A stretch of 64,000 bases of DNA from Mobula hypostoma. Lineage: Eukaryota. The notes beneath the pieces are model-generated. The model was not told the origin of the DNA and did not search any database. It saw only the letters and a program-made list of their open reading frames with translations. Of the stretch, positions 1 to 63,203 are shown in pieces (the stretch's first letter is position 1; the number at the start of each line of letters is the position of its first letter). The position numbers were made by a program, and so were the translations under genes. The stretch spans positions 145,516,001 through 145,580,000 of the forward strand of contig NC_086097.1 in the NCBI RefSeq assembly GCF_963921235.1. Reading direction: 5' to 3'.

Positions 1-566
1 TTCAAACATCACACCGTTTTGTAAAAAAAAAGCTGAAAATGAAAAGAGGATGGCTTCTACAACAGGATAATGATCCTAAACACACCTCAAAATCCACAAT
101 GGACTACCTCAAGAGGTGCAAGCTGAAGGTTTTGCAAAGGCCCTCACAGTCCCCCGACCCCGACATCATTGAAAATCTGTGGATAGACCTCAAAAGAGAA
201 GTGCATGCAAGACGGCCCAAGAATCTCACAGAACTGGAAGCCTTTTGCAAGAAAGAATGGATGAAAATCTCCCAAACAAGAATTGAAAGACTCTTTGCTG
301 GCTACAGAAGGCGTTTCCAAGCTGTGATACTAAGTACTAAGTACCGACCATGCAGGGTGCCCAAACTTTTGCTTTGGGCCCTTTTCCTTTTTCGTTATTT
401 TGAAACTGTAAAAGATGGAAATAAAAAAGTAATCTTGTTTAAAATATTAAAGAAATGTGTCATATTTAACTTTATGCCTTTTGGAAATCAGGTCATCTTT
501 TACTCGTTTAGCTATTCACAGTAATAGAAATTTTGACCGGGGTGTCCAAACTTTTGCATGCCACTG
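1..566 (+). mobile_element. Tc1-family transposon, 3' part (transposase C-terminus and right TIR)
   Basis: ORF 39..524 carries QQDNDPKH...SPDPDIIENLW (DD34E catalytic tail). Ends ...cttttgcatgccactg followed by TA. Confidence 0.93.
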
Positions 567-804: not shown

Positions 805-1213
805 TACCAGTCCTTAGTGCAGGAGTGTAAAGACAGGGGATGGCAGGCATGGTTGTTCCCGGTGGAGATCGGCTGCAGAGGTTTCCCAGCCAAATCAGCA
901 TGGTGGTTGTTGTCAGATCTGGGCCTGGTCGAAAGGAGCAAAAAACAAGCAGCTCGTAGGATGGGGGAAGAGGCAGAACGAGCCTCTTGTTGGATTTGGA
1001 GTAGGCGAGAGGAGGGAAGCTGGAAGCCAGGAGCAGATGGGCAGTGACTTGGCCACCACTGCCGGCCCACCAACTGCAGAGTGTCGTGGTTAAGGGTCAA
1101 AACACTCTGTGATGGTTGGGCACCACCAGAGGACATCTGCTCCTGGCTGAAGGCTACGGTTACCTTATAAGGTAACTGGAGAATGCACCCTAACGGGTGT
1201 ATGTAACAAGACA
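805..1213 (+). mobile_element. 3' fragment of a Hero/R2-group (restriction-like endonuclease) non-LTR retrotransposon, inserted in an old CR1
   Basis: YQSLVQECKDRGWQAWLFPVEIGCRGFPAKSAWWLL...AERASCWIW resembles the Hero RLE C-terminus (PVEVGCRG motif). Followed by a hairpin-rich 3' UTR. Confidence 0.75.
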
Positions 1214-61244: not shown

Positions 61245-61645
61245 GTAATATTTAATATGATTGAATTTAATTTTATTCTCTCTCTCAAACTCTGGAATGT
61301 TATCTTAAACACAATGATAGCATATTGGTTTACAATTGGAAGCCTGAGGCTCCAAGACCTGGAATTTTCCATGTCCATTACTTGCCAGTTCCTCTTAAAC
61401 AAGGAACTAGTCATTGGCCACTCATTACTTAGAACCTGCCTTATCATTCATTTAAATCTTTGCTGAATCCTAACTCCATCTGTCTACATTGGTTCTCTTA
61501 TCCATAATGAACTTGCCCAACAAAAATTGATCAATCTCAATTTCAAAAATTTCTGTTGACATGATCTGATATATGTTTGGAGCATGGATTTCAATTTTTT
61601 ACAGTGGAAGAGTTAGTTCCTGACATCGCTATGCAAAGTCTTAAT

Positions 61646-63203
61646 TACAAGGAAGGCGACAGGCCCAGATGGTGTCCCGGGACGGGATCTCCTGGCCTGT
61701 GCAAGTGAGCTAGCTGGAGTGTTTCCTGACATTTTCAACTGCTCCTGGCTTCAGTCTAAGATCCCCTCGTGTTTTAAGAAGGCAACGACAATCCCGGTGC
61801 CGAAGAAGAGCAAGGTGGCATGCCTGAATGACTGTTGACCTGTGGCTCTGGCATCAATTGCTATGAAGTGCTTCGAGAGATTGGTTTTGGCGCACATCAA
61901 GCACAGCCTACTGGTCAACCTCGACACTTTGCAATTCGCCTACCGGAGCAACAGGTCAACGGCAGATGCCATTTCTCTGGCCCTACATTACTCCTTAGTA
62001 CACCTGGAGAGTAAAGACACATATGTAAAGCTCCTTTTCATTGACTACAGCTCTGCCTTTAATACCATCATTCCAAATAAACTGATTCCTAAGCTCCGGA
62101 ATCTGGGCCTTAGCACTCAGATCTGCAGCTGGATCTTCAACTTCCTCACAGACAGGACCCAGGCTGTAAAAACAGGGGACAAGCTCTCCTCGTCAATCAC
62201 TCTGAGCACCGGTGCCCCACAAGGCTGTGTACTTAGCTCCCTGCTGTACTCACTGTACACCCATGATTGTATAGCTAAGTTTCCATCGAACTCAATATAC
62301 AAGTTTGCTGATGACACCACAATTGTAGGCTGTATCTCGGGTAATGATGAGTTTGAGTACAGAGAGGAAATTAAGAACTTGGTGGCATGGTGCGAAGACA
62401 ATAACCTATCCCTCAATGTCAGCAAGAGGAAGGAATTGGTTGTTGACTTCAGAAGGAGTAGCAGACCGCACCACCCCATTTACATTGGTGGTGTGCAAGT
62501 GGAACAGGTCAAAAGCTTTAAGTTCCTCGGGGTCAATATCACAAATGACCTGACTTGGTCCAACCAAGCAGAGTCCACTGCCAAGAAGGCCCACCAGCGC
62601 CTTTACTTCCTGAGGAAGCTAAAGAAATTTGGCCTGTCCCCTCAAACCCTCACTAATTTTTATAGATGCACCGTAGAAAGCAGTCTTCTGGGGCGCATTA
62701 CAACCTGGTATCGAAGTCGTCCTGTCCAAGACCAGAAGAAGCTGCAGAAGATCGTGAATACAACCCAGCACGTCACACAAACCAATCTTCCATCCTTGGA
62801 CTCACTTTACACCACACGCTGTTGGAGCAGTGCTGCCAGGATAATCAAGGGCACGACCCACCCAACCAACACACTTTTCGTCCCTCTTCCCTCCGGGAGA
62901 AGGCTCAGGAGCTTGAAGACTCATACGGCCAGATTTGGGAACAGCTTCTTTTCAACTGTGATAAGACTGCTGAACGGACCCGGATCTGGGCCGTACCCTC
63001 CAAATATCCAGACATGCCTCTCGGTTTTTTTTGAACTACCTTACTTTCCATTTTTCTATTTTCTATTTTCTATTTATGATTTATAATTTATATTTTTAAT
63101 ATTTACTATTGATTTGTGCACCAGGGAGCACGAAGCGCAGAATCAAATATCGCTGTGATGATTGTACGCTCTAGTATCAATTGTTTGGCGACAATAAAGT
63201 ATA
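61646..63203 (+). mobile_element. Young Rex1/Babar LINE, 5'-truncated, with a long RT ORF (61842..63086)
   Basis: [49 protein letters not shown] and YKFADDTT motifs; in-frame stop just upstream of 61842; 3' end gacaataaagtataa. Confidence 0.93.

Follow-up and report, generated by a model that had tools for sequence, protein, structure and literature searches.

A hammerhead-like RNA fold opened at the A9-G10.1 step in the 3' UTR of RLE-type non-LTR retrotransposons

The hammerhead core comprises C3 U4 G5 A6 N7 G8 A9, G12 A13 A14 A15 and U16 (PMC3088659). The blocks S, G and C were defined by Eckert, Friedrich, Weinberg and Weinberg 2023 (PMC10085705; HRIMA-1 motif and variant). According to their text, RNAs with the block order S-G-C (type SGC) cleave at 0.007-0.19 per min, assayed as cis-cleaving constructs. 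They are known from metatranscriptomes, and the paper's search of RefSeq and genomes of known organisms is described as yielding one GCS candidate only. The authors assume that the A9-G10.1 link can be interrupted by at most 1-2 nt and that CUGANGA is inseparable from its stem strands. In their validated type-SGC alignments an unpaired column stands between A9 and the stem II strand, being U in most rows shown.

This was the single paper on type SGC in the open literature searched, and a term search of its supplement gave no fish or retrotransposon entry. The literature searched likewise contained no hammerhead without an A9-G10.1 bond and no kink-turn or dimer-linkage loop in a natural LINE hammerhead. 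No hammerhead in 3' UTRs of Hero or other RLE elements was found in the open literature searched.

A first-pass annotation of the locus presented here had taken its order of hammerhead blocks to be undescribed. The order is S-G-C and is already covered by type SGC (PMC10085705). What is new, as judged from covariation, is a stem II strand that comes from upstream and an A9-G10.1 step that is opened into a four-way junction.

The retrotransposon 3' end and its parts

The window is a stretch of 64,000 nt from Mobula hypostoma (NC_086097.1, positions 145,516,001 to 145,580,000 of the forward strand). Frame 799-1047 shows 58-81% identity to 11 of 11 candidate proteins, and a profile search with this frame returned 3,692 representatives at E ≤ 0.001. 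The homologues include a protein named R2DM-type Pol in hake and others in herring, pipefish and mussel. Long or full-length homologues exhibit RVT_1 and weak zf-RVT matches upstream, and the full-length ones match L1 and R2 proteins in PDB. They show the organisation of RLE-type elements (R2-group), one ORF that holds RT, a zinc knuckle and, at its C-terminus, a restriction-like endonuclease; the putative endonuclease motif was identified by eye. Judged by the RVT_1 and zf-RVT matches together with the R2DM-type Pol homologues, the locus is thus the 3' end of an RLE-type non-LTR retrotransposon. Presumably the element belongs to Hero. The hosts of the homologues, the dispersed flanks and an N-terminal CCHH finger agree with descriptions in PMC9004415 and PMC4640811; they fit this label but do not prove it.

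Related copies were read out in one run (X1, 2,140 contigs at 80% likeness). Contigs of related copies contain coding sequence upstream of 805 and place the limits of the window copy near 805 and 1210. Position ~1210 is a candidate start site for reverse transcription. Similar end hairpins exist in many loci (judged by eye, uncounted). The parts of the copy, including those assigned below by comparison with relatives, are as follows.

805..1047, + strand: 5'-truncated ORF remnant of the retrotransposon, covers the last part of the restriction-like endonuclease domain and closes with the stop codon TGA (1045-1047)
1025..1039, + strand: W strand, last ORF codons; pairs with Z at 1134-1148, 15/15 complementary
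1040..1063, + strand: P0 hairpin, contains the stop codon; self-complementary hexamer 1050-1055 in the loop; 94.9% paired in the family
1064..1068, + strand: X strand, i.e. the stem II 5' strand from upstream, with G1064 as G10.1; pairs with 1094-1098
1070..1075, + strand: Y strand; pairs with 1114-1119, 85.5% paired in the family
1076..1078, + strand: non-bulged strand of the putative kink-turn (3n, 2n, 1n); G2n mutated to C1077 in the window copy
1079..1090, + strand: block S; stem III strand 1079-1084 (U16.1 at 1084), H17 as C1085 with the predicted cut site on its 3' side, stem I strand 1086-1090
1094..1107, + strand: block G; stem II 3' strand 1094-1098 (C11.1 at 1098), GAAA slot 1099-1102, stem III strand 1102-1107
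1108..1119, + strand: bulge of the putative kink-turn 1108-1110, GA 1111-1112, 3b at 1113 (A in relatives), then Y' 1114-1119
1122..1133, + strand: block C; stem I strand 1122-1126, CUGANGA slot 1127-1133
1134..1148, + strand: Z strand, directly after A9; its partner is W and not the strand before GAAA
1159..1176, + strand: subfamily-specific hairpin, the palindrome of the first-pass annotation; kept as a hairpin in four close relatives
1184..1210, + strand: terminal hairpin (1184-1203) followed by a short tail; the element ends near 1210, where 61 contigs leave the sequence

No second copy of the fold was found within the 64-kb window, and two scans of viral contigs gave no relatives. Just upstream of the retrotransposon copy lies a Tc1-type transposase remnant (DDE_3, window 3-524). 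LINE reverse transcriptase remnants are located at 1964-2933 (RVT_1 at 1964-2494) and, by eye, at about 61600-62400. The window looks like repeat-rich vertebrate DNA. Three protein homologues (P0016, P0145, P0012) have the endonuclease C-terminal domain joined to thrombospondin, SRCR/zona pellucida or other domains. These joins are likely gene-prediction artefacts over inserted copies.

Core, helices and junction in the family

All letters named by the first-pass annotation were found at their places, and its hammerhead-like core in S-G-C order within a 3' UTR is borne out for an RLE-type non-LTR retrotransposon. In the window copy both the core and the kink-turn pattern are incomplete (A1099, A1128 and two kink-turn letters): G12 (1099) has decayed to A and U4 has mutated to A1128. 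In related copies (X1), position 1099 is G in 17,066 of 22,111 depth and position 1128 is T in 48,537 of 48,672, with T also at 1131. Hence the family has GAAA and CUGAUGA and the window copy has decayed; with G12, U4 and two kink-turn letters changed, it is by its letters a dead relic. The related copies also show the kink-turn letters, namely G at 1077 (43,001/43,481) and A at 1113 (4,528/4,580).

Some details had to be corrected. The suspected decay of a CpG in the GAAA slot was right, but the slot is 1099-1102 (AAAA), whereby C1098 is position 11.1 and the CpG is C1098-G1099. Stem III is present, but with 6 bp in the family (1079-1084/1102-1107). The nine-pair version was rejected, its outer three pairs being formed in 32% of cells, as in shuffles; the window copy has these pairs because the kink-turn G is mutated to C1077. 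The 18-bp palindrome exists as well. It was rejected as a conserved feature, since it is a hairpin whose loop is self-complementary in the window copy and different in four close relatives.

Folding of 1025-1210 gives z = -8.4, with 0 of 200 shuffles as good, and W/Z (1025-1039/1134-1148) is a perfect 15-bp helix in the window copy. Neither this helix nor three other conserved elements had been noticed in the first-pass annotation. For 1065-1121 single-sequence folding, a method blind to pseudoknots, proposes an alternative nested fold.

Relatives were sought by protein and not by RNA motif. The query alignment comprised 22 of 160 proteins picked for two exact peptide motifs and is therefore biased to close lineages. 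The resulting locus set (n=84) holds the best 80 of 333 confirmed metagenome-contig matches and 4 genome-contig matches; their endonuclease domains match the query at 43-94%. When 450 nt behind each match were scanned, the S-G-C layout appeared behind the endonuclease gene in 69 of these 84 loci. A motif score of at least 8 was reached by 67 of the 69 matches, with the window at 8.0, versus 0/205 shuffles and 0/36 coding controls. At a looser cut-off of 6 the controls gave 12/205 and 4/36. Twelve of the 15 misses are contigs ending 13-203 nt after the protein match, eight of which show a cut-off motif (two only at E 0.24-0.3). The remaining ones are a locus with an internal deletion (L032), one that breaks off ~8 nt past the site (L075) and one with the motif 670 nt further on (L056). 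Together with the window the 69 loci form 41 clusters at 85%, with a median pairwise identity of 55%.

The complete core is present in 61 of the 69 scan matches. These core counts are partly circular, because the scan selected on GAAAC and CUGANGA. G12 is lost five times, always G to A, and four of these losses stand behind C11.1, the pattern that CpG decay would give. Informative are the positions that the scan did not score, namely H17, N7, 10.1-11.1 and the four outer helices. All four letters occur at N7. H17 is C in 33, U in 23, A in 13 and G in none of the 69 loci. Mapped onto a tree built from 41 endonuclease fragments, H17 requires at least 18 changes, no fewer than with shuffled labels. 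By our own arithmetic (one change in three to G), the chance that 18 changes avoid G is ~0.0007. In one family (L059) U3 occurs with A8; this is the way in which the C3-G8 pair of the active fold covaries in nature (PMC3088659; pair described in PMC11300833). This is one case, and its G8 to A change may be CpG decay.

Rfam returned no match for the window stretch or for 8 intact loci. An RNA-model search of the three prokaryote-labelled genomes behind L082-L084 gave two known loci and one weak match (E 0.49). Loci L081-L084 are animal-type retrotransposon pieces in bacteria-labelled genomes, one of them on a 539-kb contig; such pieces are probably eukaryotic contamination.

Helices were evaluated on 41 representatives drawn from 39 clusters. 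The clusters of L039 (deleted) and L068 (cut) were left out and two clusters give two rows. The sequence-only MAFFT alignment (A5) has 37 rows; L002, L024, L044 and L084, decayed or distant, were dropped, and L051 and L083 were kept although their 5' halves are misaligned. Six helices that share no nucleotide account for 88.4% of 1,340 cells as paired, with a covariation score of 0.686 vs 0.212 in shuffled and at most 0.164 in slid controls. Individually, W/Z is paired in 81.8% of cells, P0 in 94.9%, X/X' in 93.5%, Y in 85.5%, stem III in 89.5% and stem I in 93.3%. Double changes occur in 11 of 11 pairs of W/Z and in 5 of 6 pairs of Y. RNAalifold recovers W/Z, P0 and X/X' unaided. Stems I and III are adjacent to the core and covary, with 0 of 500 shuffles as high. 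The covariation that had been expected for stem I amounts to 58 double-change cells vs 14 shuffled. Two outcomes that would have spoken against the first-pass reading, AAAA/CAGAGGA as the letters of the family and a stem I free of covariation, were thus not observed.

Stem II had been regarded as merely weak in the window copy. In the family, the strand after CUGANGA pairs with the strand before GAAA in 43.8% of cells, the level of shuffles, in contrast to 93.5% for the upstream strand X. X/X' exhibits 51 double changes vs 15 shuffled and its first pair is G-C in 28 and G-U in 5 of 37 rows. X is positioned 19-20 nt upstream of U16.1 in 40 of 41 representatives and X/X' closes on 11.1 next to G12, as a hammerhead stem II does. 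G10.1 comes from upstream of block S, not covalently after A9 with 0-2 inserted nt. Among the 41 representatives, 30 have G-C and 5 have G-U as the pair next to G12 (10.1-11.1), while the other two junction pairs, the one after A9 and the first one of P0, vary freely; this bias is the signature expected of G10.1-C11.1. All three junction pairs with no unpaired base between them are found in 34 of 41, whereby the script had searched for the W and X that pair best. No core base is taken up by the supported helices.

Read from this covariation, A9 leads into W/Z, W into P0 and P0 to G10.1, which is a four-way junction inserted at the A9-G10.1 step. Written as a circle, the connectivity deduced is that of type SGC plus interaction helix (Y), opened at a new place. 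Conservation and covariation identify it as a real, ancient and strongly covarying RNA.

Two additional modules were recognised. A standard kink-turn is described as a Watson-Crick helix, a 3-nt bulge and then G.A and A.G pairs (PMC5061560). Between stem III and Y the corresponding pattern (3-nt bulge then GA, opposite GA) is exact in 30 of 41 representatives (raw count), with U as third bulge letter in 23 of the 30, and A1112 is more than 90% conserved in A5. By sequence pattern the bulge is a candidate standard kink-turn. The second module is the P0 loop. Its centre is a hexamer palindrome in 30 of 41 and GACG in 3 of 41 representatives, together 33/41 vs 23% in shuffles. This shuffle control is lenient, for the hairpin is not preserved and, of the six letters, all but the inner four depend on the stem; moreover, four of the palindromes are GACG loops plus closing pair and a few lie in the stem. 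The loops vary among self-complementary forms (UGAUCA, UGGCCA, UGUACA, AGUACU); others are GACG tetraloops. Palindromic and GACG loops are described as retroviral dimer-linkage motifs (PMC516450), and by analogy the hexamer is a candidate kissing-loop dimer signal. One lineage (L028, L030, L040, L043, L046, L050, L082) has a longer tail after Z with an own conserved stretch, and GACG-type P0 loops.

Genomic traces, possible mechanism and alternatives

Cleavage had been suggested to make the 3' end of the element. The whole fold lies within the elements, whose ends are 35-130 nt past A9; hence cleavage does not form this end and 3'-end formation was rejected. No depth step was found at 1085/1086 in contigs of related copies and no loose ends there among those listed. 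Solitary copies contain the whole fold. Taken together, most templates were seemingly uncut or rejoined.

Another element begins immediately after the tail in 14 of the 55 loci whose 3' flank is 400 nt or longer. Such head-to-tail arrays with the next element within a few bases of the 3' end include L004, L009, L014, L049, L061 and L062. Of the six neighbours that could be tested, five belong to the same family, and for two of these the overlap comprises only 23 and 34 bases; once the neighbour is of a different family (68% identical). Some head-to-tail contigs may be collapsed assemblies.

One locus (L036:801-1082) is a chimera. It joins a 3' piece of 280 bp, whose end at position 17 (the predicted cut) falls into a 2-nt microhomology, to the RT region of a sister element. 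The junction fits a jump onto a cleaved RNA end, but loss of DNA inside a tandem pair would explain it as well. In L032, L071 and L075, likewise partial copies, the end is not at position 17. Template jumping of R2 was seen in vitro, while its role in vivo is doubted (PMC8857657).

At L071:956-1100 a remnant of little more than the RNA module (from W) is followed immediately by a full 5' leader and preceded by AT-rich DNA. The 5' leader itself (L004:3075-3230, L007:1975-2130, L009:2490-2645 and 12 further loci; alignment A6) comprises about five conserved short hairpins with purine-rich loops and UGAC-like spacers, followed by two more hairpins. In A6, 27 of 36 predicted pairs show double changes. 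The run of hairpins may serve as an internal promoter or in translation; those of the scanned loci that contain this leader had no Rfam match.

That the fold cleaves, dimer form included, appears probable from its conserved core. As to how, we lean towards a 3' UTR that acts as a conditional self-cleaving hammerhead with type-SGC helices, its chain being opened between A9 and G10.1. A9 would continue into W/Z and the upstream strand would deliver G10.1, with W/Z, P0, stem II and the core meeting in a four-way junction. The kink-turn would bend stem III back, allowing helix Y to reach the tops of stems I and II; a kink of ~50 degrees could return Y beside them. Here the pairing stems from covariation and we infer the arrangement in space. 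Based on conservation, the cut would fall on the 3' side of position 17, with G12 and G8 acting as they usually do in hammerheads. As new insertions are copied intact through the site, cutting would have to be conditional. The junction can presumably stack two ways and often overlaps the ORF end, which might provide an off-switch. Strict coupling to the stop codon was rejected, since the codon lies inside W-P0 in only 19 of 41 representatives. In the transposing particle the fold might be held off by the element's protein, by a terminating ribosome or by two-RNA pairing via the P0 loops. Free or read-through RNA would be cut, by which the next array element could be freed from the co-transcript and unbound copies destroyed; this role we propose tentatively. 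The most far-reaching version appears doubtful to us. In it an animal LINE clade would possess an active hammerhead of a seventh connectivity, with four separate blocks and no A9-G10.1 bond, switched by junction, kink-turn and kissing-loop dimerisation, whereby dimerisation would also yield the arrays and cleavage would release the next element and license its translation.

Of the other readings, a silent hammerhead-derived scaffold survives best, although we consider it rather unlikely. The break between A9 and G10.1 would disable the chemistry and the fold would be a docking site for the reverse transcriptase, as is the 3' UTR core of R2. Such a core, small and structured, is described as being recognised by the R2 protein (PMC10499050). 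In accordance, the fold lies at the 3' end inside every copy, related-copy contigs show no trace of cut templates and a canonical stem II is absent. However, a silent scaffold must explain the kept catalytic letters, the free N7, the missing G17 and G10.1-C11.1 across elements at 43-94% endonuclease match, and a separate terminal hairpin is available for recognition. Docking and cutting are also not mutually exclusive.

A two-molecule ribozyme, which we judge improbable, would have kissing P0 loops and swapped strands. Its CUGANGA half would act on the S and G blocks of the other RNA, tying cleavage to dimerisation. The P0 loops agree with this, as they vary in sequence and yet stay self-complementary or become GACG, the retroviral motifs of PMC516450. 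Penelope hammerheads, moreover, are reported to cleave as dimers, and the frequent head-to-tail pairs, mostly of the same family as given above, point the same way. Covariation, however, cannot separate intra- from intermolecular pairs, the P0 control is lenient as stated, all helices can be drawn in one chain and type-SGC RNAs were, according to PMC10085705, assayed as cis-cleaving constructs.

That the fold is an ordinary type-SGC hammerhead, whose stem II would arise from the strand behind CUGANGA and be weak in the window copy, is very unlikely in spite of the matching block order. With one extra nt the pairing of that strand reaches 54.6%, above all 500 shuffles. This is within slid controls (up to 55.7%), and without the extra nt it is at chance, for which reason the canonical stem II was rejected. 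Both strands have better covarying partners (93.5% and 81.8%), which largely refutes this reading. Chance resemblance in a decayed repeat, suggested by the window copy alone with its two core mismatches and its lack of an Rfam match, is refuted by family conservation, covariation and the controls of the motif scan and deserves hardly any credit.

If the RNA cleaves, it extends the hammerhead topologies beyond the six thought possible by Eckert et al. (PMC10085705). It would also be the first non-circular hammerhead found in animal genomes and in a LINE 3' UTR within the literature searched. In this case the kink-turn suggests an answer to a question described as open by Eckert et al., the meeting of interaction helix and stem III. 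Without a match in Rfam the fold is missed by current models, and a large class of genomic ribozymes may hence be uncounted. If it does not cleave, it is a hammerhead that has become fixed as a binding scaffold, likewise an unusual case. With both outcomes a short, conserved RNA module at the 3' end, including a candidate dimer signal, is defined for an RLE-type clade; R2, to which this clade is related, provides elements that are at present employed for gene insertion. The fold can be tested on a 120-nt transcript.

Comparison with known ribozymes and 3' UTRs

HDV-like and twister ribozymes of R2 and other non-LTR retrotransposons are similar in that self-cleavage is linked to the processing of co-transcripts and to translation initiation, as outlined in PMC13725137. 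They belong to other ribozyme classes. The fold presented here is part of the 3' UTR and its target would be the neighbour downstream, whereas ribozymes of these two kinds generally sit at the 5' end of the element.

Penelope-like elements, retrozymes and satellite repeats share with our element a hammerhead core in a retroelement, often in tandem copies. Their hammerheads differ by being type I or III, often minimal, and located in terminal repeats, as summarised in PMC6155905. The RLE-type LINE fold, unlike those, has multiple pseudoknots and occurs once, inside the 3' end. The discontinuous hammerhead of Clec2, treated in the same source (PMC6155905), resembles it in its 3' UTR location and in a core whose parts lie apart along the sequence. 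It is a type III hammerhead of a host gene with a long insertion in helix I, and its stem II is attached to A9.

The 3' UTR core of R2 likewise is a structured 3' UTR of an RLE-type element and is needed for self-recognition by the R2 protein (PMC10499050). As presented in that source it is divergent between elements, and no hammerhead letters were found in it. Standard kink-turns and retroviral dimer-linkage loops (PMC5061560, PMC516450, as described there) are alike in the 3-nt bulge with tandem G.A pairs and in the palindromic or GACG loops; for our element their function is inferred.

Type SGC (PMC10085705) comes closest. Common to both are the S-G-C order, the short linker between stem I and stem II, the fourth helix, here Y, by which these two stems are connected at their other sides, the full core and often one extra nt after A9, a feature of type SGC. 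In type SGC, stem II follows CUGANGA at the 3' end. In the retrotransposon fold its 5' strand stands upstream of block S and A9 passes into another helix. CUGANGA is thus not directly followed by its stem II strand and block C is not intact; hence the fold would work like type SGC but is not filed as one. Moreover it adds the putative kink-turn leading from stem III to the interaction helix and the four-way junction with P0. Type SGC has been shown to cleave, whereas cleavage by the retrotransposon fold is a prediction.
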